64,000 nt of DNA from Syntrophales bacterium. GTDB taxonomy: Bacteria > Desulfobacterota > Syntrophia > Syntrophales > PHBD01. The stretch spans positions 1,344,001 through 1,408,000 of the forward strand of contig OY764159.1 of assembly GCA_963668175.1 (NCBI GenBank), in the 5' to 3' direction. The notes beneath the pieces are model-generated. The model was given only the letters and a program-made list of their open reading frames with translations. It ran no database searches and was not told the DNA's origin. Made by a program: the position numbers and the translations under genes. Below are positions 17,831-51,347 of this stretch, piece by piece; within the stretch, counting starts at the first letter, position 1, and the number at the start of each line of letters is the position of its first letter.

Positions 17831-17885
17831 AGAGATCGTTTCTAACATCTATAACGCGGATGCATGCAAATGACAAGGCCTGTCA

Positions 17886-19371: not shown

Positions 19372-19382
19372 AGCCTCTTCTC

Positions 19383-22450: not shown

Positions 22451-22466
22451 AGATGCCTCCTTGCCT

Positions 22467-26117: not shown

Positions 26118-26233
26118 GACGAAAGGACTCCCGACGAATTGTGACGGAAGGACCGGCCGCGATATGCCTTCCAGGCGGCGCCCGTGATCATCATGCCGCT
26201 TCACCTGCCTTACCTTGTTTGCTCCGAGGAGGG

Positions 26234-26896: not shown

Positions 26897-26912
26897 AATA
26901 TCGCTTCCTCCA

Positions 26913-28218: not shown

Positions 28219-28233
28219 GATACACCTCTTCCT

Positions 28234-29053: not shown

Positions 29054-29266
29054 TTAGACCCCGCCCGGCTGCCGCAAAGCATCCCGATCGTTCCGCAAGT
29101 ATATTCGGACCGATCCCGGCCTGCGCAACCGGTTCTCAAATGTTGTCGCGGGCGGCGGCCGCAATGTGGCCGCCGCTCAGAAAGTCTTTACCATATCGGG
29201 AACGAATTTCCCAAAACTATCATCGTCCGGTAAATCCGGACCCGGCCCGCCATGAGCCATGATGAC

Positions 29267-29295
29267 AAAAAGGGGAGATATTAACCTCCCCTTTT
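29267..29295. terminator. Intrinsic terminator after hydC
   Basis: AAAAAGGGGAG-ATATTAAC-CTCCCCTTTT. Confidence 0.75.
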
Positions 29296-29326
29296 CGCTT
29301 TATAAACTTCTACATGTGCCTGATCT

Positions 29327-29992: not shown

Positions 29993-30009
29993 AACTGCCT
30001 CCTTGTCGG

Positions 30010-31683: not shown

Positions 31684-31704
31684 GCTCATTCCTCCCCGGA
31701 ACTG

Positions 31705-32916: not shown

Positions 32917-33022
32917 AAGACCCCCTTTCAAAGTACGTAAAATCTTTCAATCAGGACCTTCTCCGCCTGATTGTAGTCTGTTTTGGGAAAAAAAAGGAAG
33001 CTTTCGATCCACCACTAAAACG

Positions 33023-34323: not shown

Positions 34324-34493
34324 CGCAACGCTGAGGCGGCCTGTCGCTGCCGGTACTTACCTCCAATCCATCGATCCAGACAGTTGTTTTCCCCCCCGGC
34401 GATCCCGGTAAGCTTTTTTATGGCAAAGGCGGTCCGGTACGGGTGGAATAATGATTCATTATCATGAATAAAGATTGAAAGGAGCGCATGAAC

Positions 34494-37400
34494 ATGGATG
34501 TAACCAGAAGAGGTTTCTTGAAGCTCTCCGGGTCGGTTCTTGCGGCAAGCGGCGTCGGCGTCAGCCTGAAGCCCGTTTCCGCATACGCCGCCCCGCTGAA
34601 GGTCCAGTATGCTAAAGAAACCACAACGATTTGCCCCTATTGTTCGGTTGGATGCAGCATCATTGTTTCCGTGCGGAACGGTAAGGTGGTCAATACGGAA
34701 GGCGATCCTGACAGCCCGATCAACCAAGGATCGTTATGCACCAAAGGCGGCTCCATCTACCAGATGTCCGTCAACGAAAACCGGCTGGGCAAGCCCCTCT
34801 ACCGCGCCCCGTATGCCACCGAATGGAAAGAGGTGGACTGGGAGTTCGCCCTGGACAAGATTGCCAGGAATATCAAGACCAGCCGGGACAAGAGTTTCAA
34901 GTTCAAAAACGATAAGGGCGAAACCGTCAACCGCACGGAAGGCATCGCGTCCGTGGGAAGCGCCGCGATGGACCTGGAAGAATGCTTCGTCTACCAGAAA
35001 TTCTTAAGGGGGTTGGGTCTGGTCTATATCGAACACCAGGCCCGTATCTGACACAGCCCGACTGTACCGGCTCTGGCAGAGTCGTTCGGACGCGGCGCGA
35101 TGACGAATCACTGGAACGATTTCGCAAACAGTGATGTGATATTAATCATGGGCAGCAACCCTGCCTCCAACCATCCCGTTTCCTTCAAATGGATCACCAA
35201 GGCCGTGGAGAAGGGCGCCAAGATCATCTGCGTTGACCCCCGGTTTACGCAGTCTGCTGCCAAATCGCACGTTTACGCCCCTCTCCGCTCCGGGACGGAT
35301 ATCGCCTTCCTGGGCGGCATGATCAAGTATATCATCGACAATAAGCTCTACCAGGAAGAATACGTTAAACACTATACCAATGCATCTTTCCTGGTCAATC
35401 CGGCCTTCAAGCTTCCCGGAGACAACGACGGTGTCTTCTCGGGGCTCACGGGCGGGAAGTACGACAAGGCGACATGGTCGTACCAGACGGACGGCAAGGG
35501 CGTCATTAAGAAGGACCCGACGCTTACCGATCCGCACTGCGTTTTTCAGCTCCTGAAGAAACACTATTCCCGCTATACCCCGGAGATGGTCCACAAAATC
35601 ACCGGGACGCCGGCGGACAAACTGGTCGAAATTTACAAGCTCTACGGTTCGACGGGCAAGCCGGACAAGGCCGGCGTCGAGCTCTACGCCATGGGCTGGA
35701 CGCAGCATACCGTCGGGACGCAAATCATCCGGACGATGTGCATGACCCAGCTTCTCTTGGGCAACATGGGCGTTGCCGGCGGCGGCGTCGCGGCCATGCG
35801 GGGCGAGTCCAACGTCCAGGGATCGACCGACCACGGCCTACTGTTCCATATCTGGCCCGGTTACCTTGCGGCGCCGACGGCTTCGATGGGCACCCTGAAA
35901 GAGTACAACGAGAAGAAGACGCCGACGACGAAAGAGCCCAACAGCCTGAACTGGTGGAAGAACTATCCCAAATATTCGGCCAGTTATATGCGCGCCGTCT
36001 ACGGGAAGAATGCCACCCTCGAAGAGGCCTATGCCTATATGCCCAAGCTCGACGACGGGGCCAACTACTCGTGGCTTGTGCTCTTCGACCAGATGTACAA
36101 GGAAAAGTTCACCGGGTTCTTCGCCTGGGGCATGAACCCCGCGTGCAGCGGCGCCCATTCCAACAAGGTCCGGCAGGCCCTGGGCAAGCTGGACTGGATG
36201 GTCAACGTCAACCTCTTCGACAACGAGACCGGCTCCTTCTGGAGAGGTCCGGGCATGGACCCCACGAAGATCAAAACCGAAGTCTTCATGCTGCCCTGTG
36301 CCTCGTCCATCGAGAAGGAAGGCAGCCTCGCCAACAGCAGCCGCCTCATGCAATGGCGCTACAAGGCGGTCGAGCCGCCCGGAATCGCCCTTCCCGATGC
36401 GGATATCATGAGCGATCTCTATTTGCGGCTCAAGGAGCTCTACGAGAAGGAAGGCGGCCCCCTGAAAGAGGCCCTCACAAAGATGACCTGGCCCTACGGC
36501 AAAAAGGTCGGCGCCCACTACCATTTCGATCCCCATGCGGCGGCCAAGGAGATCAACGGGTTCTTCCTGGAGGACAAGAAAGTCGAGAATCCCACCAAGA
36601 AGGGCGATTTCAAGGAATTCAAGAAAGGCGATCCCGTTCCCACGTTCGCCTGGCTGCAGGATGACGGGTCAACCTCTTCCGGCTGCTGGGTCTATTGCGG
36701 TTCTTATGGAGCCACCAACATGGCCGCCCGGCGCGGAACGAAAGACGCCTCCGGCATCGGCCTCTATTCCGACTGGGCCTGGTCCTGGCCGGTGAACCGC
36801 CGCATCATCTATAACGGCGCCTCCGTCGATCCCAAGGGCAATCCTTGGGACCCCAAGCGGGCCGTCATCAAGTGGAACGGCGAGAAGTGGGTCGGCGACG
36901 TACCCGACGGAGCGGGAGATCCCGGTTCCGGCCGGCCGCCTTTCATCATGAAGCCGGACGGTGTGGGCAGCCTCTACGGCCCCGGCCTGGTGGACGGGCC
37001 TTTCCCCGAGCATTACGAGCCCCTGGAATGTCCGGTGGAGAAGAATTTCCTGTCTCCCCAGAAGCATAATCCGGTCATCAAGCGTTTCGACAAGCCGGGC
37101 GTGGGCTCCGACCTCGACGTTTACTCCAACGTGGCAAGCTGCGATCCCCGCTTCCCCATCGTCTGCTCGACCTACCGGATCAGCGAGCACTGGCAGACGG
37201 GTGTCCTGACCCGCTGGTGTCCGTGGCTGGCAGAAATGCAGCCGGAAATGTGGTGCGAGATGAGCCTGGAGCTGGCGACGGAGAAGGGCATCAAGAACGG
37301 CGAGAAGGTGGTCGTCAAATCGGCAAGAGGCGAAGTCGAAGCCGTGGCGATCGTCACGTCCCGCTTCAAGCCTTTCAACATCAGCGGCAACACGATCCAT

Positions 37401-37595
37401 GAAGTCGGCATCCCCTGGCATTTCGGCTGGATTACAACCATGGACAGGAAATACTCCCCGGGCGACAAGAAGGCCAAGGTGTTCACCAAGGGCGACGCGG
37501 CGAATCTCCTCGTCCCGACCATCGGCGACGCCAACACCATGATCCCGGAAAGCAAGGCTTTCATGGTCAATGTGATGAAGAAGGGGGTGAATTAA
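34494..37595 (+). CDS. fdnG: Formate dehydrogenase-N alpha subunit, selenocysteine-containing (intact)
   Basis: Tat TRRGFLK, CPYCSVGC; in-frame TGA 35049-35051 in EHQARI-U-HSPTVPALAESFGRGAMTNH joins ORFs 34488-35051 and 35100-37595; RGESNVQG. Confidence 0.93.
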
Positions 37596-37597
37596 TC

Positions 37598-38401
37598 ATG
37601 GCTGATATCGTGAAACTCATCGATGTATCGAAATGCACCGGATGCCGCGGCTGCCAGTTGGCCTGCAAGCAGTGGAACCAGATGCCGGCGCGGCAGACGA
37701 CGAATTATGGGACATACCAGAATCCGCCGGACCTGCAATGGAACACCTGGACGCTGATACGGTTCCAGGAGATTCCCGACAAGGACCGGGTCAAGTGGGT
37801 CTTCCGGAAGGACGGCTGCATGCACTGCACCGACGCCGCCTGCGTCAAGGTCTGTCCCAGCGGTGCCCTTTTTTATTCGGAACTGGGGACGGTCGGTCTC
37901 AACAAGGAACGCTGCATCGGCTGTAAGGAATGCGTCTCCGCCTGTCCCTTCGAGATCCCCAGGTACGACAATTTGACGGACAAGATCTACAAGTGCGATC
38001 TCTGCCTGTCGCGTCTCCAGAGCGATCTGACCCCGGCCTGCGTCAAGGCGTGCCCGACGGGTACCCTGACCTTCGGCGACAAGGAGAAGCTTCTGAAAAA
38101 GGCCTATGCCCGCGTAGAGGAACTGAAGAAGGAGGGCTTTGCCGACGCGAACGTATACGGGGACAAGTTCGTCAAGGGGACGCACGTGATGTACGTCCTG
38201 GACGAGAAGCCGTCCGTGTACGACAAGCTGCCGACGAGCCCGTCGGTGCCGCTGGCGGTCGTTCTCTGGAAGGACTTCCTGAAGCCGCTCAGCTTAATTG
38301 CGGCGGGCGGCGTGATAGCGGGCTCGTTCCTGCATTACATCATCCACGGGCCGAAACTGCCCGACGAAGAGCCCCGAGACAACGGCAAAGGAGGTGAATA
38401 G
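37598..38401 (+). CDS. fdnH: Formate dehydrogenase beta (Fe-S) subunit
   Basis: CTGCRGCQLACKQWN and three further Fe-S motifs; C-terminal TM. Confidence 0.93.
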   Translation: MADIVKLIDVSKCTGCRGCQLACKQWNQMPARQTTNYGTYQNPPDLQWNTWTLIRFQEIPDKDRVKWVFRKDGCMHCTDAACVKVCPSGALFYSELGTVGLNKERCIGCKECVSACPFEIPRYDNLTDKIYKCDLCLSRLQSDLTPACVKACPTGTLTFGDKEKLLKKAYARVEELKKEGFADANVYGDKFVKGTHVMYVLDEKPSVYDKLPTSPSVPLAVVLWKDFLKPLSLIAAGGVIAGSFLHYIIHGPKLPDEEPRDNGKGGE

Positions 38402-39074
38402 CCATGAGAAAAGGACTTATTCAGGTAACGGACGCCTTTGAAAGGATCGTCCACTGGTCTTTGGCCGCTTCCTGCCTGATCCTGTGCATTACGGGACTGG
38501 GGATGATGTTCCATTCGCTGAACTTCATCGGCGACATCATGGGCGGGTTGAAATCGTTGAAGTACGTTCACAACTTTACGGGGGTCTTTTTCGCCTTTGC
38601 CCTGGCGTTCACGATCGGGATGTGGTGGAAGGAGGCGGGCATTTTTTCGATGCCCGAGGACCTGGACTGGATCATGTGCGGGGGCGGGTACGTCTGGCAT
38701 GTGGACAAGGTTCCGGAAGTGGGGAAGTACAATCCGGGTCAGAAGATGTTCTTCCTGGTGGTGGCGGGCTTCGGCGTGGTCATGGTGCTGACGGGTCTCG
38801 TGATGTGGTTTCCCTTGAGCTTTCCGTCATGGCTGGTGCGCTGGCTGTTTGTCCTGCACGCACTGGGCTTCGTGGCGATCTTTGCCTTTTTCTTCGTCCA
38901 TCTGTACCTGGGGACGGTGGGATCGCCGGGATCGTTGCCGGCGATGCTGACGGGCTGGGTGACGCGTGCGTGGCTTGCCAAGCAGCACCCCAAGTGGTTG
39001 AAGGAGATGGAGCACGAAGGGAAGCTCGTCGTCTACGGCGAAGAGAAGAAATCGGCCCACGGCCACTAGGCGGA
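38144..39074 (+). repeat. 931-bp near-identical inverted repeat, copy 2
   Basis: Matches the reverse complement of 17886-18816. Confidence 0.9.
38404..39069 (+). CDS. fdnI: Formate dehydrogenase gamma subunit (cytochrome b)
   Basis: Protein differs from the 17891-18556 copy at one residue (VAIFAF vs VAVFAF). Confidence 0.92.
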   Translation: MRKGLIQVTDAFERIVHWSLAASCLILCITGLGMMFHSLNFIGDIMGGLKSLKYVHNFTGVFFAFALAFTIGMWWKEAGIFSMPEDLDWIMCGGGYVWHVDKVPEVGKYNPGQKMFFLVVAGFGVVMVLTGLVMWFPLSFPSWLVRWLFVLHALGFVAIFAFFFVHLYLGTVGSPGSLPAMLTGWVTRAWLAKQHPKWLKEMEHEGKLVVYGEEKKSAHGH

Positions 39075-39199: not shown

Positions 39200-39784
39200 A
39201 TGATGAAGGCGAAACGGCGGTTGACGGCGGCCGCGGTCTGCTTTTCGGCATTATGTCTCTTTTGGTTCCCGGCGCAGGCGGCAGCACCGCCGGCTGTCGG
39301 CGGCGTCATGCCGGACATTGTGCTGGAGGTGCCCAAGGATTCAGGCGATCGCAGCTATCTGGGGCTCTCCTGGTGGGGCAAGACCTTCACGATACCGGCC
39401 GTCAAGGCCCGGGTCGTCATCATCGAAATATTCAGCATGTATTGCCCCTACTGCCAGGCGGAGGCTCCCAAGGTCAATGCGCTTTATGAGATGATCGAGG
39501 CCGATCCGGCCCTCAAGGGAAAGCTGAAGTTGATCGGGATCGGTGTGGGGAATTCGTCTTACGAGGTCGGCGTCTTCAAAAAAAGATATCAGATTCCGTT
39601 TCCGCTTTTTCCCGATGGGGGATTTGTCATCCATAAACAGGTGGGCGAGGTGCGGACGCCTTACTTCATAGGAATCAGGATAGAGGGCGACGGGTCCCAT
39701 AGGGTTTTCTTTTCCAGACTGGGGGCTTTCGACACGGCGGACGGATTTCTTAAAGACATGGTCAAACTTTCCGGTCTGAAGTAA
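39200..39784 (+). CDS. Exported TlpA/ResA-like thioredoxin-fold protein
   Basis: Signal peptide (AQA), [14 protein letters not shown] cis-Pro loop. Confidence 0.8.
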
Positions 39785-39795
39785 GGAGGGCATGC

Positions 39796-40392
39796 ATGAA
39801 ATCGATTTATACCATCCTGTTTGCGGTCACCGCCGCCGCGGTCTTTGCGGCATCTCCCGCATCCGCCCGTTCCGACGCCTTCAAGGACAACATCTACAAT
39901 CCCGGCCGTCTCAAGCCGACCGACAGCGTGCTTAAGGTGAAAGCTGGGGACCCGGCTCCCGATTTTACACTTCCGGCCGTTGCCGGAGGGACGGTTACGC
40001 TCAGCCGCTTCAGGGGCAGTAAGAATGTGGTCCTGTCCTTCGTTCCCGCCGCCTGGACACCCGTCTGTTCCGACCAGTGGCCCGGGTATAATATCGTCAA
40101 GGACCTCTTCGACGCCCACGACGCGGTGCTTCTGGGAATTACGGTGGACAACATACCGACGCTCTTTTCCTGGACGAACCAGATGGGGCGGCTGTGGTTC
40201 CCCGTCCTTTCCGATTTCTATCCCCACGGCAAAGCGGCGGCTGCTTACGGCATCCTGCGGTCCGACGGCACGTCGGAGAGGGCGCTCTTCGTGATCGACA
40301 AGAAGGGCATCATCCGCTACATCGATGTCCACGACATCAACGAAAGGCCGTCCCTGGAAGCCCTGGCAAAAGAACTGGAAAAGCTGAAATAG
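39796..40392 (+). CDS. Exported peroxiredoxin/redoxin (AhpC-TSA, AhpE-like)
   Basis: Signal peptide, [30 protein letters not shown]. Confidence 0.85.
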
Positions 40393-40543
40393 GCGGCACT
40401 GCCGGATGAAGGCGGAGTCGATGCGATAAAAGCGGTCTTTCCGTCCGGTGTTTTTAATGCTATAAAGTAATCGTTTCTATTCCGGTTGCTGCACGTTCGT
40501 ATTGAAAAGGCGGCATCAAGGATTGCGAACGGAGAAGACTGTG

Positions 40544-41122
40544 ATGACGAAAAGGCCGATTTTGTATATGGCGGCATGTCTGCTCGCGTCGCTTTTCCTG
40601 GCGGCACCCGCCGGGGCGGCGTCGGTGCCGGCCGTCGGCGACAGTCTTCCGGACATTATCCTGGACGTTCCACAGGATACGGCAGATATGGGCTATCTGG
40701 GGCTGCCGCAAGGGGACACAACGTTCAGGCTGAAGGCGATCAAGGCCCGCGCCATGATCGTCGTCATATTCAACATCTATTGCCGCACATGTCAGGAGGA
40801 GGCACCCAATCTCAAGGTGCTCTACGAAAGGATTGCGGCCGATCCCGCTTCGGCGGGAAAGGTCAAGATCGTCGGGATCGGTATGGGCAATTCGGCTTAC
40901 GAGGTCGATAACTTCCGCAAGAGGTACCATATTCCCTTCCCGCTCTTTCCCGACAGGAAATTTACTGTCCATAAGCAGGTGGGCGAGGTGAGGACCCCGT
41001 ATCTCTTCGGCGTCAAGACGGGCGGCGACAGGTCTTTGCGCATCATATACTCCAGGGAGGGAGGCTTCCCGTCAGCGGACGAATTTCTCCGCCGGATCGT
41101 TCGCCTCTCCGGTCTGGAATAG
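40544..41122 (+). CDS. Second exported TlpA/ResA-like protein, paralog of 39200-39784
   Basis: FNIYCRTC; shares IPFPLFPD and [11 protein letters not shown] with the first copy. Confidence 0.8.
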   Translation: MTKRPILYMAACLLASLFLAAPAGAASVPAVGDSLPDIILDVPQDTADMGYLGLPQGDTTFRLKAIKARAMIVVIFNIYCRTCQEEAPNLKVLYERIAADPASAGKVKIVGIGMGNSAYEVDNFRKRYHIPFPLFPDRKFTVHKQVGEVRTPYLFGVKTGGDRSLRIIYSREGGFPSADEFLRRIVRLSGLE

Positions 41123-41327: not shown

Positions 41328-42110
41328 TTGCACAAGTATAAAATCACCCTCGAATACGACGGGACTGGATACAGCGGCTGGCAGACCCAGAAGAATGCCC
41401 GGAGTATCCAGGCGACGGTGCTGGCCGCGGCGCGGGAGGTTTTCGGGACGGTGGCCGATCTCCAGGGGGCCGGGCGGACCGACGCCGGGGTCCATGCTCT
41501 GGGCCAGGTCGCCCATATCGAAACGGAAAAAAGAATTCCTCCGCAGCAGGTCCTCTTCGGCCTCAACGACCGTCTGCCCGCCTCCGTCAACGTCCTGCAC
41601 GTGGAGACGGCGTCGCCGCGTTTTCATGCCCGCCACCATGCCCGGCAGCGGATTTATCTCTACCAGATTTCCCGGCGCCGGACGGCCTTCGGGAAGCGGT
41701 ACGTCTGGTGGATCAAGGACGATCTCGATACGGCCGCGATGAAGGCGGTCTCTTCCCTCTTCGTCGGCATGCACGACTTCGTTTCCTTTGCGGACAAGAG
41801 GTTCGACAAGGACGCATCGACCAAGGTCAAGGTCGACGCCGTCGAACTCATCGACGCGGACGACCTCCTTCTCATCCGGGTGGCCGGATCGCATTTCCTC
41901 TGGAAGATGGTGCGGCGGATGGTGGGCGTTCTGGCCGAAGTGGGCCGGGGCAACCTGGACGGCCGGGCCATTGTGAAGATGCTTCAGCATTATTCGACCG
42001 AACCGGCCAGGCTCACGGCGCCGGCCTCGGGCCTCTTCCTCGAACAGGTCCTTTACGAAGGGGACCGACAGCGGACCGTGAACCTTCCCCGTTCCTACCC
42101 AAGTCTTTAA
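41328..42110 (+). CDS. truA: tRNA pseudouridine(38-40) synthase
   Basis: EYDGTGYSGWQ, AGRTDAGVHA, FHAR, FLWKMVR. Confidence 0.92.
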   Translation: MHKYKITLEYDGTGYSGWQTQKNARSIQATVLAAAREVFGTVADLQGAGRTDAGVHALGQVAHIETEKRIPPQQVLFGLNDRLPASVNVLHVETASPRFHARHHARQRIYLYQISRRRTAFGKRYVWWIKDDLDTAAMKAVSSLFVGMHDFVSFADKRFDKDASTKVKVDAVELIDADDLLLIRVAGSHFLWKMVRRMVGVLAEVGRGNLDGRAIVKMLQHYSTEPARLTAPASGLFLEQVLYEGDRQRTVNLPRSYPSL

Positions 42111-42132: not shown

Positions 42133-42972
42133 CTAAGCCTGCAGATAGCTGTGAAGGCCCGGGAGGTAGTTTACCCCCAGGTACGTAAAGAGGACGGACG
42201 CGAAGCCGATGACGGCCATGAGCGCCAGGCGTTTGCCGCGCCAGTCGCGGACGTACCGGGCGTGAAGCATGGCGGCGTATATGATCCAGGTAATGAGGGA
42301 CCAGGTCTCTTTCGGGTCCCAGCTCCAGTACGATCCCCAGGCGTAATGAGCCCAGATGGAACCCGTCATGATCCCGATCGTAAGAAATACAAAGCCAAGG
42401 GCGACGCTGCGATAGATCGTCTCGTCCAGGCTCTCCGAAGAGGGGAGGCGTTCGCCGATTCCCTCGTGACGGGCCGTGATCCAATCCCTGAGAAAATAGA
42501 TCAGGCCGCATCCGAAAGCGACGGTGAAGGAGGCATAGCCCAGAAAACAGGTAACGACGTGGCTCGTCAGCCAGTTGCTTTGCAAGGCCGGGATCAGGGG
42601 TTGAATCTGGCTGCTGACGCCGGGAGCGATCGAGGCGTAGGCCATGGCGAGAAAAGCCGCGGGCATCACGAAGGCGCCGATGGCGCGGGAGCCGGTTCGC
42701 CATTCGATGAAGAGGTTGATGGCGACAATCGCCCAGGCGAAGAAGACCATCGATTCGTACAGGTTCGACAGGGGGATATGCCCGATGCCGAGATCGTAGG
42801 AAGCCTTCCAGCGGAGGAGCAGGGCGCATGTTTCGGCGGCGATGCCTATCCATGCGGCGATGGAGCCGACGCGGCCCCATAATTCCTTTCCGAAAATCAT
42901 GCGGACAAGATAGGCGACAAAGGAAAAGAAGTAGATAAATGTCACCCAGCTTAAAATCGTCGTATGCGTCAT
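42133..42972 (-). CDS. resC: System II cytochrome c synthase WWD subunit (ResC/CcsA)
   Basis: HIPLSNLYES, PALQSNWLTSH, WAHYAWGSYWSWDPKETW, GLHSY. Confidence 0.95.
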   Translation of the reverse strand: MTHTTILSWVTFIYFFSFVAYLVRMIFGKELWGRVGSIAAWIGIAAETCALLLRWKASYDLGIGHIPLSNLYESMVFFAWAIVAINLFIEWRTGSRAIGAFVMPAAFLAMAYASIAPGVSSQIQPLIPALQSNWLTSHVVTCFLGYASFTVAFGCGLIYFLRDWITARHEGIGERLPSSESLDETIYRSVALGFVFLTIGIMTGSIWAHYAWGSYWSWDPKETWSLITWIIYAAMLHARYVRDWRGKRLALMAVIGFASVLFTYLGVNYLPGLHSYLQA

Positions 42973-44354
42973 GAAGCCAGTTCCTTTACAATTTGGGTAC
43001 GGATGCCGTCCATCAGCCGCTTCATGGATGCGGCGTTCCGGTTGCTGCGGCCGGCCACGGATATCCGCGTCTTTCCCTTAACGGTGTCGACGCGGACCCA
43101 GAAGCGATGGTGGAAGACGAAGTAGATGACGACAAGCCCCGCAATCATCAGGAACCCGCCGCCGGCGACGAGCGGCACGCCGGGGTCACGGGCTACCTGG
43201 AGGCCTGTATAGTATTGTTGTTCGACGCGGAGGAGGGCGAAGACATACGGCCTGAACAGGCCGGGGTTGAAGAGGGGGACTTCGTCCATGAGTCCCGGGT
43301 TCGATTCCTTGATCTCGTCGATATGCTGGAATATCCAGAACTGAACATCCGTTGCCGCCGACCGGACGCGGATTTTCGCCGCCGGTCCCATATTCATCAA
43401 GTTGTCTTCGACGCGGAGCACCTCGACCTTGGCGTCGCTTCCCGGGATGTCGAATACATCCCCGACGCTGATCATGAATCCTTTTTCCTTCAACGCTTTG
43501 CCGGTGACCGTGATGAAGGCGCGGCCGTCCGAAACGGAGCCGTAGCTTGCCTGGTAGAAACGGACGCCGCCAAACTCGAGGGGATGATTGACAAGCACCG
43601 GCCCCTGAAAGACCACCTTGCCGTCCTTAATGAAGCTGAGATCGGAGCGGTAGGTCTTCGGGGCGCCGTTTTCGTAGAAATCCACCATGAAGCGGTCGCA
43701 CCGGACGGAAAAGCCGAGGTCCCGTGTCCCCTTGCCGCCCCTGATCGAGGCAGCGTCGGCGGTTCCGCCCTCGACGATGTTCATGTAGGCGTTCAAGCCC
43801 CATAGGGAGCCGACGAGGGTCCCGGCGATCATAATGAGGATGCTCAAATGGACGGCGTAGACGCCAAAGAGGGAGAACCGCCCTTTGTCTCCGAAGAAGA
43901 CCGTCGTGCCTTCCTGGGAATCGTTCCTTTCGAGTCGGCGGAATTTGCCCCGCAGGAGCGCCTCGACGCGCTTCGCGACGTCTTCGCGCCCGGCGTCGGA
44001 GATCATGACCTGTTCGGGAGGCAGATTCTCGTAAAGCCCGGCCGGACCGGGAAAGGGGCTGGACGTGAATTGACGCAATGATGCGGGAAAACGCCTCCAT
44101 GAGCAGACGATAAGATTGACGGACAAGAGTCCCAGAAGGACGTAGAATACCAGGGAGTGGTAGATGTCGAAAAGCTGGAGATTGTGCAGGATGCCCACCG
44201 TGGTCGGCGACAGCTGCCGGGCGAATTCCGGCGCGTTTTCCTGCTGCGGGATGAAGGTCCCGACAATGGCCAGCAGGGCGATCAGGATCAGGAGGGTCAG
44301 GGTCAGTTTGAGGGAAGACAGGACCTTGAGAAGAGGGTTGTCGTTTTTCGGCAA
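42969..44354 (-). CDS. resB: System II cytochrome c biogenesis protein ResB
   Basis: GTFIPQ, DIYHS, YAVHLS, VNHPL..YQAS, GLQVARDPG. Confidence 0.92.
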   Translation of the reverse strand: MPKNDNPLLKVLSSLKLTLTLLILIALLAIVGTFIPQQENAPEFARQLSPTTVGILHNLQLFDIYHSLVFYVLLGLLSVNLIVCSWRRFPASLRQFTSSPFPGPAGLYENLPPEQVMISDAGREDVAKRVEALLRGKFRRLERNDSQEGTTVFFGDKGRFSLFGVYAVHLSILIMIAGTLVGSLWGLNAYMNIVEGGTADAASIRGGKGTRDLGFSVRCDRFMVDFYENGAPKTYRSDLSFIKDGKVVFQGPVLVNHPLEFGGVRFYQASYGSVSDGRAFITVTGKALKEKGFMISVGDVFDIPGSDAKVEVLRVEDNLMNMGPAAKIRVRSAATDVQFWIFQHIDEIKESNPGLMDEVPLFNPGLFRPYVFALLRVEQQYYTGLQVARDPGVPLVAGGGFLMIAGLVVIYFVFHHRFWVRVDTVKGKTRISVAGRSNRNAASMKRLMDGIRTQIVKELAS

Positions 44355-44535
44355 TGAAGGATTCTCCTTTTATCGTCACGCCCGTCGGGCGTCCGTACCG
44401 CGGCAAGCGATACTATCTATAAATTTTACCATCAATGCCGACCCATAGCAAGCAGAAGGTGGCGGCAACGCCGGACGGATTTCCCGGCCCGCACAGGCCT
44501 CTGTGCGACAAATCTGTCGATCCCTCAGCATAACG

Positions 44536-44566
44536 CTTGACAAGAACGGTCAAGTGGCGCTATTTT
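44536..44566 (+). promoter_or_regulatory. Candidate promoter/operator for the nrfD-like operon
   Basis: TTGACA (44537-44542)-N18-TATTTT, overlapped by palindrome CTTGAC-N7-GTCAAG (44536-44554). Confidence 0.45.
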
Positions 44567-44612
44567 ATTTGCGGGGGCAACGTATTTGTATGATGTGTGG
44601 AGATGTTTATTT

Positions 44613-45869
44613 ATGGCCTCTTTGGGTAAAGCTTGGCAAGCCGTCGATGTGGCGGCCGCATTAAGGCGCGTCCTATCCGGCGGACCCGTCTATCTCTTTT
44701 TTCTTTTCCTGTTTGTCGCCCTTCTGCTGACCGGTGCCGGGGCCGGAGTTCATGCCCTGTTCGTCGCCGGCAGTCGCCACGCCTACGGGACATACCGGCA
44801 GGTTCCCGTGGCGATGCTGATATCCAGTTACGCCTTCTTTGCCATCGCCTCGACAGGGATCTGCATCATATCGTCCATCGGGCACGTCTTCGGGGTCAGG
44901 GACCTCATGCCGCTGGCCAAGCGATGCGTGCTCCTTTCGATCTTCACCATCCTGTCGGGGTTTTTCGTGATCGGCCTGGAGTTGGAGAATCCGATCCGGA
45001 TGGCCATCTACAACGTCATCTCACCGAATTTATCATCGAACATCTGGTGGATGGGCACCCTGTACGGCTTTGAAGTTGTCTTCCTCACGGTGGAGTTTAT
45101 CTTCCTCATGAGCGGCGATCACCGGACGGCGTCGAAAGTCGGCCTGGTGGGAGTTATCTGCGGAGTCGCCGCCATCAGCAACCTGGGCGGCGTTTTTGCC
45201 ATGATGCACGGCCGCGAGTTTTGGTACGGCCCGTTTCTGCCCGTCTTTTTCATCGCCTCCGCCATGATGACCGGCTGCGCCTTCATCATGTTCTTCACGA
45301 TCATCGCCTCTTTCGTCGGACGAAAGAAGATTGAAGGGGCGACGGCCCGGTCCCTGGAAGTCGTTTCGAACCTCGCGATGCTGATGATTGCCGTGGCCCT
45401 GTTTTTCACGATCTGGCGGATGGTGTCGCTCAGCGTCGCGGGCGAACGGCAGCTCCTGGAGCTCGAAGCCATGGTCTCCGGGGCCTTTGCCTTCAATTTC
45501 TGGGGCCTGGAAATCGTCTGCGGCATCGTCATCCCTTTCATCCTTCTTTGGCTCGGAAAGGGCAGAAGCATGTGGCTCATGTTCACGGCGTCGGCCCTCG
45601 TCATATTTTCGGTCTTCTTCGTTCGTCTGGATCTCGTCGTCATCGGGCAGATCGTGCCGTACTATATGGATCTCGGTGTCGTCGAGTATTCCCGCCTCAA
45701 CGCCTATATGCCGACCTTGCACGAAGGCCTGGTGGTGCTGGGCGGGATAGGCTTCTGCATGTCGGCCTTCCTCTTTGCCGAGAGGCTCTTCGACGGCTAC
45801 CCCGACGACGGCCATGACGACGCCGTATCGCACGAGGCTGCCGGGGACCGGGCGGAGGTGGCATCATGA
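44613..45869 (+). CDS. NrfD/PsrC-family integral membrane quinol-interacting subunit
   Basis: About ten TM segments, ELENPIR, SPNLSSNIWWMGTLY, REFWYGP, YMPT. Confidence 0.85.
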   Translation: MASLGKAWQAVDVAAALRRVLSGGPVYLFFLFLFVALLLTGAGAGVHALFVAGSRHAYGTYRQVPVAMLISSYAFFAIASTGICIISSIGHVFGVRDLMPLAKRCVLLSIFTILSGFFVIGLELENPIRMAIYNVISPNLSSNIWWMGTLYGFEVVFLTVEFIFLMSGDHRTASKVGLVGVICGVAAISNLGGVFAMMHGREFWYGPFLPVFFIASAMMTGCAFIMFFTIIASFVGRKKIEGATARSLEVVSNLAMLMIAVALFFTIWRMVSLSVAGERQLLELEAMVSGAFAFNFWGLEIVCGIVIPFILLWLGKGRSMWLMFTASALVIFSVFFVRLDLVVIGQIVPYYMDLGVVEYSRLNAYMPTLHEGLVVLGGIGFCMSAFLFAERLFDGYPDDGHDDAVSHEAAGDRAEVAS

Positions 45870-46618
45870 CAACGAACGAAACCGAAAGCAAGAAGACTGC
45901 GCGGGAAGGGAAAGGCGATATCCAGGACAGGGAACGACGCGAGTTCCTGAAGATCGGCCTGGTGATCACGGGCGTTTTTGCCGGCGGCACGGTCCTCTCC
46001 CTCGCTTCCATAGCCGGAAAGGGATCGTCAGCTGCTTTAAGCAAGGAGCCGTATCCGTATAAGCCTCACTACGGCATGGTGATAAGGCAGGACCGCTGCA
46101 TCGACTGCGAGCGCTGCATGGAGGCCTGCGTTGCCACCAATCACGTGCCGTCCTACGGCTGGCGGACCAATATCCTGGCCCGGGAAGTGCCCGCTGCCGT
46201 CGGGCAGAACCGGGAGTTCATCCCCATCCTCTGCAACCAGTGCAACAACCCGCCCTGCGTCCGGACCTGCCCGACCACGGCGACTTATAAAGATAAGAAA
46301 ACCGGGATTGTCGTCATGGACATCAAGAAATGCATCGGCTGCAAGTCCTGCATGATGGCCTGTCCTTACGATATGCGCTACTACAACGAAGAGAGGCAGG
46401 CCATCGACAAGTGCGATTTCTGTTTCGAATCGAGACTCAAGAAGGGTGAGAAGACCACGGCCTGCGCCGAGGCCTGTCCGGCCGACGTGCGGGTGTTCGG
46501 CGATATCTCCGATCCGGGGAACCGCGCCTATCAACTGATTCATCAGGTTCAGAAAGCCGTCTGGGTTTTGCGGCCGGAGGTCGGCGCCCTGCCGAACATC
46601 TTCTACACGAAGGGTTAA
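45866..46618 (+). CDS. NrfC/PsrB-like 4x[4Fe-4S] protein with Tat motif
   Basis: RREFLK, CIDCERC, CNQCNNPPC, CIGCKSC, KCDFC..CAEACP. Confidence 0.9.
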   Translation: MTTNETESKKTAREGKGDIQDRERREFLKIGLVITGVFAGGTVLSLASIAGKGSSAALSKEPYPYKPHYGMVIRQDRCIDCERCMEACVATNHVPSYGWRTNILAREVPAAVGQNREFIPILCNQCNNPPCVRTCPTTATYKDKKTGIVVMDIKKCIGCKSCMMACPYDMRYYNEERQAIDKCDFCFESRLKKGEKTTACAEACPADVRVFGDISDPGNRAYQLIHQVQKAVWVLRPEVGALPNIFYTKG

Positions 46619-46628
46619 CGGAATTACG

Positions 46629-48950
46629 ATGAAAAAGCGTTTCGCCTTGATCACGATGATACTGGCCGTTCCGATGCTTGTGGCCGCCGGCGCCGCCACG
46701 GGAAGCTTTTCCGACGGGGGCGGCATCCTCTACACGGAGCCGGTGAAGGCGGTCCTCTTCAGCCATAAAGCCCACGTGGACGCGAAGGGGATTTCCTGCG
46801 ATCGCTGCCATTCTGGTCTCTTCGACATGGAAGCCCTGAAGGTCCAGCAGAAGAAGGATTTCGTCATGGAATCCCTCTACAAGGGCAAGTACTGCGGGGC
46901 CTGTCACAACGGCAAGGCGGCATTCGCCTCCGACACCCAGTGCGCTCGGTGCCATGTCCGTGCCGAGGGGATCAAGGCCGGATTCGTCAAGGGCAAAGAG
47001 AAAGCGGCTACGGTCTATAATACTTCGGTAACGATGGGCAAAGGGGAGAGCGCCGTCCGTTTCCGTCATGAAACGCACACCGCCAAGGCCGCATGCGCCG
47101 ACTGCCACCCCCGCCTCTTCAAAGCGAAAAAAGGCGCCGACCGCATTGCCATGGCCGATCACGGCAAAAACAAGTACTGCTTCTCGTGCCATGACGGCCG
47201 CAAGGCCTCTACGTGGAACGAATGCAGCACCTGCCATGCCAAGGTGCCGGTCCCTTCCCAGGCCGTTCTCTTCGGGAAGGGCGAGAAGGCGGTGCCCTTC
47301 AACCACAAGAGCCACACGGCGTCCCTGAAGTGCGCAAGCTGTCATACGAAACTATTCCCCTACAAGAAAACCGGGAAGAAGATCGCCTTCGCCGACCATG
47401 CCGCGAACAAGGACTGCTTCGCATGCCACGCCAGCTCGGGAAAAGGTTCGGCCTCTTACGACTGCAACCGCTGCCATGCGAAGACAAAGACATCCGCGGC
47501 TGCCGCGCCTGCTGCGGGGCCTGCCGGGCCCGCCCAGCCCCTTCTTTTCGGCCAGGGGGCGAAGGCTGTAGCCTTCAACCACAAGAGCCATTCGGGGGGC
47601 TCGATGCAGTGCGCAAGCTGCCATACGAAGCTCTTCCCCTACAAGCGGAGCGGCGAAAAGATCGCCTTCGCGGATCATGCCACGAACAAGAACTGCTTCG
47701 CGTGCCATGCCAGCTCGGGAAAAGGCTCGGCAACCTATACCTGCAATCTCTGCCATAAGAGTCAGGCCTCCGCCGCCCCGGCCGGGAACAAGGCCGGGAG
47801 CAAGAACGGCTGCCTCAACTGCCATGCCAATGACGCTGCCATGAAGGCGATGGTCAAACCGCCGGCGATCCCCACCGAAGGAGAGGGCTGAGCGGGGGCG
47901 CCTCCGCCAGTTAAGGCGGAGGAGTATTATAAAGGCTACCTTGTCGATCAGGGGCTGGTCGGAACGGACGTGCACCTCAGGATGGGGTGCAAGGCCTGCC
48001 ACGGCGGCGACGAAAACGGCGGATCGAAGGCCGCCGCCCACAAAGGCCTGATCGTCCGGCCCTCCGACGACCTCAAAGCCTGCGGGAACTGCCACAAGGC
48101 CATTGCCGACACATACGCCAAATCCCTCCATTACACGACCATCGGCCAGCGCGAGGGCGTCAAGGCCCGTTTCTCCAAGGCGGAACTGGCCATGTTCGAC
48201 CGGAAAGTATTCAACCAGTCCTGCCGCAGCTGCCACGCCTCCTGCGGCGACTGCCACGTTAAATCGCCTCCCGTCTCGGGTATTTCCCTGGGACTCATCG
48301 CCGGGCACAAGTTCGTCAAAAAGAACGAGGGGAAGACCTGCGCCTTCTGCCACGGAGGACGCGTCTATCCCGAATTCACCGGCGAATACGGCGGGTCCCC
48401 CGACGTCCACTACCAGAAGGGCATGATGTGCATGGACTGCCATAAGAAGTCGGAGGTCCACGGCGACGGCGCGATGGCGATGAACAAGCAGTCCGTCAAG
48501 GACCGGCCCCGGTGTGTAGCCTGCCATAAGCTCGACGGCAAGCAAATGGCCCATAACGTCCACCAGGACAAGGTGACCTGCCAGGGGTGCCACGTCGGCG
48601 GCGAGTACCGCCAATGCGAGAACTGTCACGTGGGTCCCGGCTCCATGTCGAAGCCGGGTTTCATCCTGGGACGGAATCCCCGGGACAACAAGACGTTGAC
48701 CACGCTCCGGTTGATCCCCACGGTCAGGGACACGTTCAAGCCGGCAGGCATCGCCATGAGCAGCTTCGATGCTGTGCCCAACTACTGGGATTCCCCCGTC
48801 CACAGCATCAAGAAGCGTACGGCACGGACCAGGTCTTGCGACAGCTGCCATGCGCAGCGGGAAGGGTTCCTGAAGGAGGAAACACTCATCAAGGACGGCT
48901 CCAAGGCCAACCGGAACCTGATCTATAACCTGAAACCCCTGGGTAAATAA
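46629..48950 (+). CDS. Predicted 773-aa multiheme c-type cytochrome selenoprotein (23 CXXCH, UGA at codon 421)
   Basis: Signal peptide; 13 CXXCH before and 10 after the in-frame TGA 47889-47891; 26 sense codons link to ORF 47970-48950; SECIS-like hairpin. If read-through is wrong, these are two cytochrome genes. Confidence 0.8.
47889..47922 (+). promoter_or_regulatory. UGA plus candidate SECIS hairpin
   Basis: TGA-GCGGGGGCG-CCTCCGCC-AGTTAA-GGCGGAGG: perfect 8-bp stem; loop begins 17 nt after the UGA with GU at loop positions 2-3. Confidence 0.75.
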
Positions 48951-49014
48951 TTGCCGGCCGGGAATTCAAACGGCGCGGCAGAACCTGCAAGAAACCAATC
49001 CAATGCCAGACCCG

Positions 49015-49045
49015 GCCCGGCAGGGCTATCCTGCCGGGCTTTATT
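49015..49045 (+). terminator. Intrinsic terminator after the cytochrome operon
   Basis: GCCCGGCAGG-GCTAT-CCTGCCGGGC-TTTATT. Confidence 0.7.
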
Positions 49046-49267
49046 GCTTGCCGTAGAGAGGGGCTATTGAGCCCTTCCTTGAAAATAGCCGGGAGATGGG
49101 TTACACTGCGCCGTCATCTTCGAAAGGCCTGTCTCTTTCATTCGGGCCTTTCCGGGGAAGGCGGCGGAGTTGTCCCGAGGGCCTGAAGAAGGCCGGCGTT
49201 CCGTCCGGAAGGCTGGCTCAACGCGGGCCCGCCGTGCGGAACACATTACAACGGCGGAGGATCGAAG

Positions 49268-50212
49268 ATGAAGAAGATATTGTGGTTTGGCCTGGGTCTG
49301 GTCGTTATTCTCGTTGGCGCCCTGTACTTCCTGTATTCCTCTTCTTTTGTGTACGAGCAGGCGATCAACGCCGAGAGGGCCGCTGCCGGCCTCGTCAGGA
49401 AGAACATCCAGGTGGACGACCACCGTATTGCCTACCTGGAAGGCGGGGCGGGGGAGGTCGTCGTCCTGATCCACGGTTTCGGCGCCGAAAAAGACAATTG
49501 GGACCGCTTTGCCAAGTACCTCCAGCCCGGCTGCCAGGTCTTCATCCCCGATCTGCCGGGATTCGGCGAGAGCAGCAAACTGCCGGAAGCCCGCTATGAC
49601 ATAGCGAGCCAGGTCAAGCGTCTCAACCGGATAGCCGAGGCGCTCAATCTCCGGAAGTTTCACCTGGCGGGCAATTCCATGGGGGGGATGATCGCCTGCG
49701 AATACGCGGCCCAGTATCCCGAGAAGGTCCTGTCCCTCGGTCTCTTCGCCCCCGGGGGAATCTTTCCGCCCCACAAGAACGAGCTGATGAAGCTCCTCGA
49801 AAAGGGAGAGAACCCCCTCGTAGTGAAGACCCCGGAAGACTTCGACCGGATCATGTCGCTGCTTTTTGTTTCGCCTCCGCCTTTTCCGGCGCCCGTCAAA
49901 AAGTTCCTCGCGGATCGCGCCATGGCCAACGCGGCTTTCAACGAAAAAGTCTTCAAGGACATGAGCGCCGATTTCCGCACGCCGGACTCGCCGCTCGCGC
50001 CGTTTCTCCCCAAAGTCGCCGCCCCGACCCTGATCGTCTGGGGCGACAAGGACAAGATCCTCGATGTTTCGAGCGTCTCCGTCCTGGAGAAGGGGCTTAA
50101 GAACCGCCAGACGATTATCATGAAGGACACGGGCCACGTCCCTATGGTGGAAAAACCGCAGGAATCGGCAGCCGCATACCGGTCCTTTATCGAAAAGGCG
50201 GTAAAACGCTAA
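49268..50212 (+). CDS. Alpha/beta hydrolase (lipase/esterase) with N-terminal anchor
   Basis: LIHGFG, DLPGFGES, GNSMGG nucleophile elbow, WGDKD, GHVP. Confidence 0.9.
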   Translation: MKKILWFGLGLVVILVGALYFLYSSSFVYEQAINAERAAAGLVRKNIQVDDHRIAYLEGGAGEVVVLIHGFGAEKDNWDRFAKYLQPGCQVFIPDLPGFGESSKLPEARYDIASQVKRLNRIAEALNLRKFHLAGNSMGGMIACEYAAQYPEKVLSLGLFAPGGIFPPHKNELMKLLEKGENPLVVKTPEDFDRIMSLLFVSPPPFPAPVKKFLADRAMANAAFNEKVFKDMSADFRTPDSPLAPFLPKVAAPTLIVWGDKDKILDVSSVSVLEKGLKNRQTIIMKDTGHVPMVEKPQESAAAYRSFIEKAVKR

Positions 50213-50216
50213 GATC

Positions 50217-51347
50217 ATGGTTTCAAGCCGCTTCCATCCCGCACGTCTTTTCCGGCGGCGGTGGTTAAAGATTGCCCTTCCCGTCGCCGCCGTCCTCGCG
50301 GCCGTCACCGTCTGCGCCGTATTCAGGGCCGAGGGCTATATCAAGGAAAAGCTGGAGGCCAGCCTGGGCAAGGGCGTATCCATCGGTTCCGCCTCCCTGG
50401 GATTCCGGTCCATCGCATTCCGGGACGTCCGCATGAAGGACGCCGCCGGGCGGGATGCCCTCCATATCCGCGAGGTTTCCTGCGGTTTTCGGGTTTTCGA
50501 CCTCCTGACGGGGCGACGGGCGATACGCCTGATCGCGTTCCGGGAGCCGGATATCCACCTCGCGATCGACGCACATGGGAAGCTGACCGGCCCGGCCCTG
50601 GGCGTGCCGCCTGCCCGCGGGGGCAAGGAAGAAGATCAGAAGCCCTGGGTCGTGGGGCGGGTCGCGGTCAGCGGCGGGAGCCTCGATTTTTCCGATCACA
50701 GGGACCCGCACCGGCCGGTGCGCATCGAGGTCCGGGATATCCGGTTGAGCCTCGACAATCTCGCCCTGCCCGCGGACGGCCGGTTTTCGGCATACGAACT
50801 TTCGGCAACGATTCCCGGCCGTACGGGAAAAGGCACGCTTCAGAGCCGCGGCCGGATTCAATTCGGCCCCTACAACGCCGACGGTTCCCTGAAGCTCGTC
50901 AACCTCGACATCACGCCCTTTGAACCTTATTTTCAGAAGGATTACAGTATCTCTCTCCACAGGGGCTTTCTGGACCTGGACCTCTCGGCACGCATCGCCG
51001 GCGGGCACATCAAGGGCGATGGCAGGGCCGTCCTGAAAGACCTGAGCGTAAGCGACAAGGCCGGCAGCGGAGGGCAATTCGCAGGAATCCCCGTTTCGCT
51101 GATGGTGGCCTTTCTGGAACGGAATAACCATCAAATCCCCCTGCGCTTCGCCGTGGAAGGCGATCTTAAGAATCCCGCCTTCAGCCTCCGGGAGAACCTT
51201 GTCCAGGGGATCGTCTCCGGGACGGCCGAAGCCGTCGGGCATGTCCTGCATCTGCCGGGCCGGGCCGTCTCCGGCGGGAGCGTTTCGACCCTCAAATCGA
51301 CGCTCGGCCGCCTGGGGGAACGCCTCAAAAAGGGCATAAGCCCATGA
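50217..51347 (+). CDS. DUF748/AsmA-like membrane-anchored beta-rich protein
   Basis: N-terminal TM, GSLDFSD, LDITPFEPY, VEGDLKNPAFS. Confidence 0.65.
   Translation: MVSSRFHPARLFRRRWLKIALPVAAVLAAVTVCAVFRAEGYIKEKLEASLGKGVSIGSASLGFRSIAFRDVRMKDAAGRDALHIREVSCGFRVFDLLTGRRAIRLIAFREPDIHLAIDAHGKLTGPALGVPPARGGKEEDQKPWVVGRVAVSGGSLDFSDHRDPHRPVRIEVRDIRLSLDNLALPADGRFSAYELSATIPGRTGKGTLQSRGRIQFGPYNADGSLKLVNLDITPFEPYFQKDYSISLHRGFLDLDLSARIAGGHIKGDGRAVLKDLSVSDKAGSGGQFAGIPVSLMVAFLERNNHQIPLRFAVEGDLKNPAFSLRENLVQGIVSGTAEAVGHVLHLPGRAVSGGSVSTLKSTLGRLGERLKKGISP

Follow-up and report, generated by a model that had tools for sequence, protein, structure and literature searches.

The cytochrome gene at 46629-48950 on the plus strand of a Syntrophales genome encodes, to judge from its sequence, a 12-heme wire fused to an 11-heme selenoprotein that is conserved in its own right, and it is located directly behind genes for an NrfD-like and an NrfC-like protein. 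The window, i.e., the whole stretch of DNA that was analysed, comprises 64,000 nucleotides (assembly GCA_963668175.1, contig OY764159.1, positions 1,344,001 to 1,408,000), and all coordinates below refer to it unless stated otherwise. The nrfD-like gene (44613-45869, +) starts with ATG, with GGAG 11 nt upstream, and has an alternative TTG start at 44586; it is joined to the nrfC-like gene (45866-46618, +) by an ATGA overlap, and a 10-nt gap follows before the cytochrome gene. The three genes form a unit on the plus strand, flanked by the divergent resB-ccsB genes on one side and by a strong terminator on the other. The reading that we favor, with a probability of about 0.5, is that their products form a single membrane-anchored, periplasm-facing respiratory complex, in which menaquinol electrons would pass through NrfD, NrfC and the 12-heme wire to a site of selenocysteine (Sec) and heme, where a chalcogen substrate would be reduced.

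The cytochrome is one frame of 773 residues with a single in-frame TGA at 47889-47891. It contains 23 CxxCH motifs, which account for all 46 cysteines, and no CxxCK motif. The N-terminus is a signal peptide of the Sec export type. Together with four c7-type triheme domains (12 hemes), this signal peptide forms the wire part (46629-47783, +; residues 1-385), which matched model TIGR04257 (nanowire_3heme) in four stretches within residues 36-385, with 210 bits against a cut-off of 40 and an E value of 2.5e-63. The wire part is 44-51% identical to separately encoded dodecaheme genes located downstream of NrfD-NrfC in relatives. The remainder (47781-48950, +; residues ~390-773) comprises heme 13, U421 and hemes 14-23. 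This conserved 11-heme selenocysteine module, presumed to be catalytic, is 57-69% identical to stand-alone genes of ~420 amino acids in Syntrophales. It belonged to no NCBIfam family and had no relative in the PDB beyond local heme motifs; searches by sequence, with the single sequence and with a profile, gave only such local hits, to c552 (5ze8), UndA, an IhOCC-like protein (4qo5), NrfB and NrfA.

The in-frame TGA (47889-47891, +) lies in the motif EGEG-U-AGAPPPV and is read here as Sec, U421, on the strength of its conservation. The corresponding column was inspected in 80 related loci, the best ones from species-representative genomes, and TGA was present in 78 of them, with the frame and the flanking motif kept on both sides. 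Species-representative genomes gave 336 matches to the module. In an even sample of the phylum (301 genomes) the module was detected in 34 at E<=1e-20, and all 31 near-full-length matches contained one TGA. Among 60 relatives of the same order the part past residue ~385 recurred as an open frame of ~420 residues, nearly always with exactly one in-frame TGA. A distant clade with only 34% identity has EGEG-U-GG at the same alignment column. Stand-alone forms start with a signal peptide and heme 1, and Sec follows ~22 residues further on. The genome, which is one contig of 4.57 Mb, encodes a tRNA-SeC (tca; found with aragorn) as well as selB and selA, which scored 386.7 and 605.8 bits, respectively, each above its cut-off. 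A positive control for reading TGA as Sec was FdnG, also encoded in the window, with U188. A hairpin resembling a selenocysteine insertion sequence (SECIS) was found at 47901-47922 (+), starting 9 nt past the UGA, with an 8-bp stem (CCUCCGCC/GGCGGAGG) and the loop AGUUAA. In 65 distinct orthologous sequences 82% of the cells of this hairpin were paired, compared to 32-53% in slid controls.

If the TGA were a true stop, the gene would encode a 420-residue cytochrome with 13 hemes, followed by a separate, unexported ORF (open reading frame) with ten hemes or a pseudogene. The gene callers split the gene in this way in almost all database entries; the entries mostly start past the UGA, carry names such as "hypothetical" or "cytochrome c3 family", and were truncated or split in nearly all cases examined. 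The hairpin also lacks support from covariation. However, conservation of both frame and protein extends past the TGA in 78 of the 80 loci and in the clade with 34% identity, the Sec machinery is present, and the few homologs with a sense codon at this column read through as one protein. Termination at the UGA would furthermore leave a ten-heme downstream part without an export signal, as that part has no signal peptide of its own. A true stop is therefore considered very improbable.

Fusions of c7 domains to the Sec module were also found in relatives. In four loci (L043, L049, L055 and L060) the gene order was NrfD-NrfC-cytochrome-rhodanese, and reading through gave a single cytochrome ORF of ~610 residues, in which two c7 domains are fused to the Sec module; it has 7+10 heme motifs (17 hemes). 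Locus L053 had the same gene order, overlapping c7 and Sec-module matches and a TGA in the motif; it is a candidate fusion, the ORF of which was not read through. Two metagenome contigs encode pairs of proteins, P0126 plus P0004 (419+326 residues) and P0127 plus P0006 (409+322 residues), with 93% and 83% C-terminal identity to the window cytochrome, and both pairs look like the same long fusion split by gene callers. The 23-heme cytochrome of the window was the longest fusion among the loci compared. NrfCD and the Sec module were neighbours without being fused in seven further loci (L059, L066, L079, L095, L104, L120 and L121). The unfused order, found in a mainly Smithellaceae group, was Sec module, rhodanese and then NrfD-NrfC-dodecaheme-ResB-CcsB. 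In a maximum-likelihood tree of the module, computed with a quick method, the window grouped with the five other loci labelled as fused, with a Shimodaira-Hasegawa approximate likelihood ratio (SH-aLRT) value of 85, which is below the starred level, and was placed on a long branch. The fused label required 2 changes on this tree, compared to a mean of 5.9 after shuffling.

The neighbourhood of the module was surveyed by tblastn over the 80 loci, and only rows with a query coverage of at least 40% were accepted. The commonest partner of the module, which is mostly a stand-alone protein in relatives, was an exported tandem rhodanese with an active-site Cys, which adjoined it in 65 of the 80 loci and weakly resembles ExtH of the Geobacter selenite/tellurite cluster. 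A further multiheme cytochrome was present in 37 loci, a second rhodanese in 31, ResB in 28, CcsB in 27 and a c7 array in 11. The quinone-reactive component varied: 31 of the 80 loci encoded a CbcL-like protein, in which a cytochrome b domain is joined to a 9-heme c domain, and 12 encoded an ortholog of the window NrfD (53-63% identity). Pfam and NCBIfam scans backed the rhodanese and cytochrome b assignments. The name CbcL-like was given by architecture and is presumably appropriate, the Pfam cytochrome b score being 27.5 bits against a cut-off of 30.1.

Twenty-eight of the 60 order-level relatives carry a close form of the module, and 25 of these have the CbcL-like gene, 2 the NrfD ortholog, 1 neither and none both. 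Within the family of the window organism itself, all 8 relatives have the CbcL-like gene and none has the NrfD. In the window genome NrfD is present, and a genome search found neither a CbcL-like gene nor a second rhodanese or an additional cytochrome. The distant clade shows a third arrangement; its module has two extra hemes and a C-terminal membrane anchor, and a separate cytochrome b gene is adjacent. Another locus (L127, G050:C21, 7692-15427) encodes a distant homolog of the Sec module with 582 residues and 12 hemes, in which the stretch with the Sec column is masked, followed by a cytochrome b gene and, further downstream, by a split molybdoenzyme of the formate dehydrogenase (Fdh) type, FdnH, FdnI and FdhE. 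By these comparisons at least three quinone modules, NrfCD among them, can replace one another, and NrfCD is the minority one. In the lineage of the window, the quinone module was exchanged for NrfCD, and the wire became fused to the enzyme.

Since the quinone modules are interchangeable around a constant Sec module, the latter is implied to be the terminal enzyme. The sequence-only reading had proposed that the cytochrome is itself the terminal partner of NrfCD. The partner role was borne out by the fusion of a c7 cytochrome to the Sec module in the window and in the four read-through loci; that the cytochrome is a fusion, that a rhodanese is a partner of the module and that NrfCD is only a minority quinone module had been missed. 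That reading had also counted on co-conservation of the three genes, and the survey supported this only in part: because NrfCD is the minority module, the NrfD-NrfC-cytochrome trio is conserved together in a subset (12-13 of the 80 loci), and other quinone modules are found elsewhere.

The NrfD-like protein was placed by family-model scores and by fold ranking. It matched Pfam NrfD (PF03916) with 73 bits against a cut-off of 25.8 (E value 4.4e-20), and its nearest Atlas clusters were 97-100% PF03916. No NCBIfam model was matched by the window protein, and its orthologs matched the models HmcC (11 of 12) and DsrP (8 of 12) weakly. Comparison with the PDB by sequence gave no hit even at E<=10, neither with the single sequence nor with a 12-row profile. 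An AlphaFold2 (AF2) model (predicted local distance difference test score, pLDDT, 70; predicted template modelling score, pTM, 0.77) shows ten long helices, and in Foldseek searches against the PDB it matched ActC, ActF and PsrC, all with a probability of 1.00. The best folds were those of ActC of alternative complex III (6btm_C and 8k9e_C; template modelling (TM) scores 0.63-0.68), followed by ActF, while the eight-helix PsrC (2vpw_C) covered the model only in part.

The NrfC-like protein is of the periplasmic four-cluster ferredoxin type, with a twin-arginine translocation (Tat) motif (RREFLK) and 16 Cys in four cluster motifs. It matched Pfam Fer4_11 (8.6e-24), and its closest match in the PDB was PsrB (2vpw_B, 1.6e-37). 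The NCBIfam models DsrO, TtrB and NrfC scored ~160-167 bits, each under its cut-off; the equivalog cut-offs were missed with 167 against 200 bits for DsrO, 162 against 378 for NrfC, 79.8 against 420 for HmcB and 94 against 400 for QrcC. HmcA (19.8 against 400) and QrcA (35 against 180) also remained below their cut-offs and CxxCK is absent, so that the unit was not assigned to the Hmc, Qrc or Nrf complexes. It was not assigned to DsrMKJOP either, as the window NrfD gave no DsrP hit. The true DsrP of this genome is encoded at genome positions 3579414-3580556 (441 bits, cut-off 350), beside a DsrO-like gene and near dsrA, 2.2 Mb from the operon. The corresponding region (G000:C1:3579414-3591283) holds dsrA over the cut-off with a dsrB-like neighbour in addition to DsrP with its DsrO-like gene, and the organism, which belongs to a syntrophic order, thus possesses a system of dissimilatory sulfite reductase. 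With the true DsrP and dsrA elsewhere and no NCBIfam equivalog reached, the NrfCD of the window is not a known characterised complex. The sequence-only reading was to be dropped if the NrfD fell inside a characterised complex encoded elsewhere, and this did not happen.

In an alignment of 33 module sequences, including the distant clade, the 11 heme motifs and nine non-motif His were invariant, and no Cys besides the Sec column was conserved. With nine invariant non-motif His for 11 hemes, at least two hemes lack an invariant distal His, and for this reason a reactive heme is proposed that may lie beside U421 or be ligated by it. This bears on the usual reading of multiheme cytochromes of Syntrophales, in which the protein would be a non-catalytic conduit, a 23-heme wire that takes menaquinol electrons toward the outer membrane and serves extracellular electron transfer or direct interspecies electron transfer (DIET). 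The N-terminal half is indeed a c7 "nanowire" array, and the C-terminal half weakly matches domain II/IV of MtrC/MtrF (PF22113, 9e-17) and, locally, UndA. A 2026 survey of Smithellaceae counts such cytochromes as DIET markers (PMC13685792). A plain wire, however, has no role for a strictly conserved Sec or for a dedicated exported rhodanese (65 of the 80 loci), no porin or outer-membrane cytochrome gene is present in the three-gene unit of the window, and nine invariant distal His per 11 hemes point to at least one reactive heme. We regard a pure conduit as unlikely.

A detoxifying reductase powered by quinol, with peroxide, oxygen, nitrite, hydroxylamine or nitric oxide as the substrate and Sec acting as in selenoperoxidases, was also considered. 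Three AhpC/TSA-Redoxin genes lie 3-5 kb upstream (39200-41122), and the local profile matches include the heme motifs of NrfA, ONR and NrfB. On the other hand, the cytochrome lacks CxxCK and is not globally similar to NrfA, OTR or HAO, the redoxin genes are outside the cluster conserved in relatives, and the linkage to the rhodanese would be left unexplained. Such a function appears improbable.

In the favored respiratory complex, NrfD, a ten-helix subunit of the ActC/HmcC/DsrP type, would exchange electrons with menaquinol, and the Tat-exported NrfC would relay them over four [4Fe-4S] clusters. The cytochrome would accept them via its four c7-type triheme domains (12 hemes) and pass them into the 11-heme module. 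There U421, the sole non-heme chalcogen residue of the protein, would act together with a heme that is not bis-His ligated. The most likely substrate would be polysulfide or a protein or organic persulfide, and selenite is possible; the exported tandem rhodanese, encoded elsewhere in the window genome, would probably deliver the substrate. What the substrate is, which way the electrons flow and that Sec is catalytic are inferences from sequence comparisons. A sulfur or selenium acceptor is the best-supported guess for this cytochrome and, to judge from the linkage to a rhodanese and from the analogy with the Geobacter enzyme MccSep discussed below, the Sec family probably reduces sulfur or selenium compounds.

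The same components could also run in reverse, oxidising sulfide, rhodanese-carried persulfide or thiosulfate and delivering the electrons via NrfCD to menaquinone. NrfD-type modules can work in either direction, as Qrc and alternative complex III illustrate, which favors this possibility, and the genome has dsrAB. The enzymes TsdA and SoxAX, which have a His/Cys-ligated heme, oxidise thiosulfate, and the authors of the MccSep study note a mechanistic relation to the reverse reaction (PMC13510729). However, the hosts are strict anaerobes of a syntrophic order, which need electron sinks and not extra donors. The one characterised Sec multiheme enzyme is a reductase. CbcL-like proteins and cytochrome b are quinol oxidisers in Geobacter, which also argues against an oxidative direction. 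Oxidation is accordingly rated as not likely, and reduction of a chalcogen compound is retained as the favored function.

Several observations weigh against this function or against the essential part that it gives to Sec. Sense codons, GCA (Ala) and CGA (Arg), occupy the Sec column in 2 of the 80 loci (L092 and L113). The remaining motif of these two orthologs is intact and CGA is one base from TGA; they are either inactive or differently working variants, or sequencing or assembly variants. Eight database proteins long enough to span the column were inspected, with W in 2, A in 3, S in 1 and R in 1, and one of the eight, P0059, has the divergent motif GEGEKYTGTPPP there. With W, S, A or R in some homologs, Sec is dispensable in some lineages. 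Cys was not found at this position, neither in these eight full-length proteins nor in the 80 loci; a search for Cys forms with module residues 1-90 gave only 4 hits, from 14 candidates. The SECIS-like hairpin showed 0 compensatory changes and overlies invariant Pro and Ala-Glu codons, and covariation is thus neither a test of it nor evidence for it. For the Sec module, AF2 with the 33-row alignment produced a poor model (pLDDT 56.5) that gave no view of the position of Sec relative to any heme; with this model Foldseek found nothing in the PDB at E<=0.001, and a wide scan with VIA-align found no match at Z>=2. Furthermore, no rhodanese is encoded in or beside the window operon; the exported ortholog of this genome, with 59% identity, is encoded about 2.3 Mb from it (genome positions 3708539-3709405). 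The reduction of polysulfide by menaquinol is, moreover, uphill at standard potentials.

The association of the quinone modules with the Sec module is likewise not strict, which belongs to the same side of the balance. NrfD-NrfC-dodecaheme trios were present in three genomes in which the Sec module was not found (G023, 100% complete; G037, 96%; G020, 86%), so that the NrfCD quinone module is not exclusive to the Sec module, and CbcL-like genes occurred without it in 8 relatives. In G023 and G037, which lack the Sec module, a six-heme cytochrome is located upstream of the trio. Two loci without the Sec module, L130 (G023:C3, 2725-8697) and L131 (G060:C66), have a six-heme cytochrome ahead of the trio, and L130 also has an FAD-binding (FAD_binding_2) protein with a Tat signal upstream. 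The six-heme cytochrome or the FAD-binding protein is possibly a different terminal partner for the same quinone module.

A wider proposal can be put forward only tentatively. The 11-heme module might be a second, independently evolved Sec multiheme enzyme, in which the selenolate either ligates a c-type heme, forming a natural His/Sec heme, or, next to an open heme, acts as the sole nucleophile. Exchangeable modules (NrfCD, CbcL-like or cytochrome b) would connect this enzyme to menaquinol, and syntrophic Desulfobacterota would have in it their unrecognised respiratory reductase for sulfur or selenium, one that needs no molybdenum. The "DIET cytochromes" described in relatives of Syntrophus and Smithella would in that case reduce chalcogens and offer syntrophs another sink for electrons.

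The flanks of the operon were examined as well. The ccsB/resC gene (42133-42972, -) matched Pfam Cytochrom_C_asm (7e-52) and TIGR03144 CcsB (276.5 bits, cut-off 187.6), and resB (42969-44354, -), which encodes the ccsA partner and is divergent from nrfD, matched Pfam ResB (2.7e-97, 327 bits). Both belong to system II of cytochrome c maturation, with a role of CcsB in heme handling, and this ResB was the sole one recovered from the genome with the resB query used. A candidate sigma-70-like promoter lies at 44537-44566 (+; TTGACA-18-TATTTT, 10 of 12 consensus matches) and is defined by the consensus match only. The unit is closed by a hairpin at 49014-49040 (+) that resembles an intrinsic terminator, with 12 pairs, of which 9 are G-C, followed by the T-rich tail TTATTGCTTG. 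The next gene downstream encodes an unrelated alpha/beta hydrolase (49268-50212, +). The longest ORF of that region, with 414 residues on the minus strand (49064-50308), was rejected as spurious; it is arginine-rich, matches no family and is antisense to the hydrolase gene.

Upstream of the operon an operon for a formate dehydrogenase of the Fdh-N type is located at 34488-39069 (+), comprising FdnG, FdnH (37598-38401) and the cytochrome b FdnI (38404-39069). FdnG is a single frame with a Tat signal and TGA for Sec at residue 188 in the canonical motif HQARIUHSPTV; a plain list of ORFs splits it at 35051/35100. A second formate-dehydrogenase-like set (16858-22480, -) contains a molybdopterin subunit (19383-21932), an NrfC-like match (18832-19347), a cytochrome b (17891-18556) and an FdhE-like gene (16858-17796, -). 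A [NiFe] hydrogenase region (23802-32931, -) holds the small subunit (31705-32931), the large subunit (30010-31689), HypF (23802-26204) and HypD (26913-28007). The three consecutive AhpC/TSA-Redoxin genes (39200-41122, +) lie between the Fdh operon and truA (41328-42110); their products could be thiol reductants of the ResA/CcmG type for cytochrome maturation, or peroxiredoxins. These genes are outside the cluster that is conserved in the relatives. The sequence-only reading had described the three-gene unit with its ATGA overlap, 10-nt gap, terminator and divergent resB-resC pair, and its coordinates and junctions were reproduced; the count of 23 CxxCH and 0 CxxCK agreed with its statement that CXXCK is absent, and no NrfA, molybdoenzyme or hydrogenase was found within the unit. 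The neighbouring Fdh systems (the Fdh-N type with Sec and the second one) and the [NiFe] hydrogenase with hyp genes are present as it had stated, and its redox loop with these enzymes is pure conjecture.

A full-text literature search, which did not extend to subscription journals and supplements, gave no paper on the 11-heme Sec cytochrome or on its link to NrfCD. In the main text of a 2026 review of selenoproteomes the family is not among the cytochrome selenoproteins named (ExtKL, GSU2204 family and OTR family; PMC13188914). Quinone:cytochrome modules of the NrfCD type are already known; new at this locus is the wiring of an 11-heme Sec module by NrfCD. The window further offers a case in which the CbcL-like module has been replaced within one family, and one in which the rhodanese is unlinked from the module. 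The fusion is Rosetta-stone evidence on function beyond what stand-alone copies can give: the wire that otherwise follows NrfCD is fused to the module, and NrfCD replaces the CbcL-like protein within one family, which together, if the reading is right, mark the Sec module as a quinone-linked terminal enzyme. On the same condition, counts of selenoproteomes and inventories of anaerobe cytochromes are biased, as a widespread family is cut in two or truncated and mis-annotated. It would further become testable whether obligate syntrophs can dispose of menaquinol electrons on sulfur or selenium compounds, which would bear on the energetics of syntrophy and on the use of multiheme cytochromes as DIET markers.

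The closest functional precedent, known since August 2026, is the Geobacter enzyme MccSep, a polysulfide/selenite reductase with Sec and five hemes; a rhodanese, further cytochromes and a membrane module of the bc type are encoded together with it (Mihara et al. 2026, PMC13510729). MccSep corresponds to ExtKL (GSU2937-2936 of Geobacter sulfurreducens), and the ext cluster encodes the rhodanese ExtH, the cytochromes ExtM/N/S and the Rieske/cytochrome b proteins ExtO/P (PMC13510729; Jahan et al. 2018, PMC5877670). Both the cytochrome described here and MccSep are exported multiheme cytochromes c with one UGA-encoded Sec that were long annotated as two ORFs, and in both families the gene neighbourhood includes a rhodanese, additional multiheme cytochromes and a quinol-oxidising membrane module. 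In the working model for MccSep, Sec and a heme that is not bis-His ligated reduce polysulfide or selenite. MccSep contains 5 hemes, one of them His/Cys-ligated, and a C-terminal Ig-like domain, and its Sec lies close to the C-terminus in D-G-U-P. The window module contains 11 hemes; its Sec, in EGEG-U-AGAPPPV, lies 22 residues past heme 1, and a conserved Cys is absent. For the membrane module, NrfCD or a CbcL-like protein is found here in place of Rieske/cytochrome b. The MccSep model NF040886 was not among the hits of the window protein at E<=0.01 and had no match in the genome, and the two enzymes are, on present sequence evidence, alike in logic and not homologous. NF041027 (GSU2204 family) and TIGR04315 (OTR family) were also not among the NCBIfam hits of the window protein at E<=0.01, and the GSU2203 decaheme model reached 18.6 bits against a cut-off of 325.

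With HmcABC, DsrJOP, Qrc, Nhc/Ohc and ActABCDEF the window system has in common that a ten-helix NrfD-like membrane protein is combined with a four-cluster NrfC-like protein exported by Tat and with a multiheme cytochrome of c3/c7-type domains in the periplasm, a molybdopterin subunit being absent; unlike in those complexes, the cytochrome partner carries a Sec enzyme module. Residues 1-385, with four tandem c7-type triheme domains, resemble the dodecaheme nanowire cytochromes of the GSU1996 type, but the array is fused to a catalytic-looking module and is encoded behind NrfCD. GSU1996 is the type example of the TIGR04257 dodecaheme family. CbcL of Geobacter combines a multiheme cytochrome c with a cytochrome b of the HydC/FdnI type, and in most relatives a fusion of a 9-heme c domain and cytochrome b sits where NrfCD is located here. 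The polysulfide reductase systems Psr/Sud of Wolinella succinogenes and PsrABC of Thermus resemble the window system in the NrfC-like subunit, for which PsrB is the best PDB match, in the anchor of the NrfD family and in a periplasmic rhodanese as a possible carrier of polysulfide sulfur; Sud of W. succinogenes is a rhodanese-type sulfur carrier for polysulfide reductase. Unlike Psr, the window system has no molybdopterin subunit, and PsrC, with its 8 helices, covers the ten-helix NrfD model only in part.

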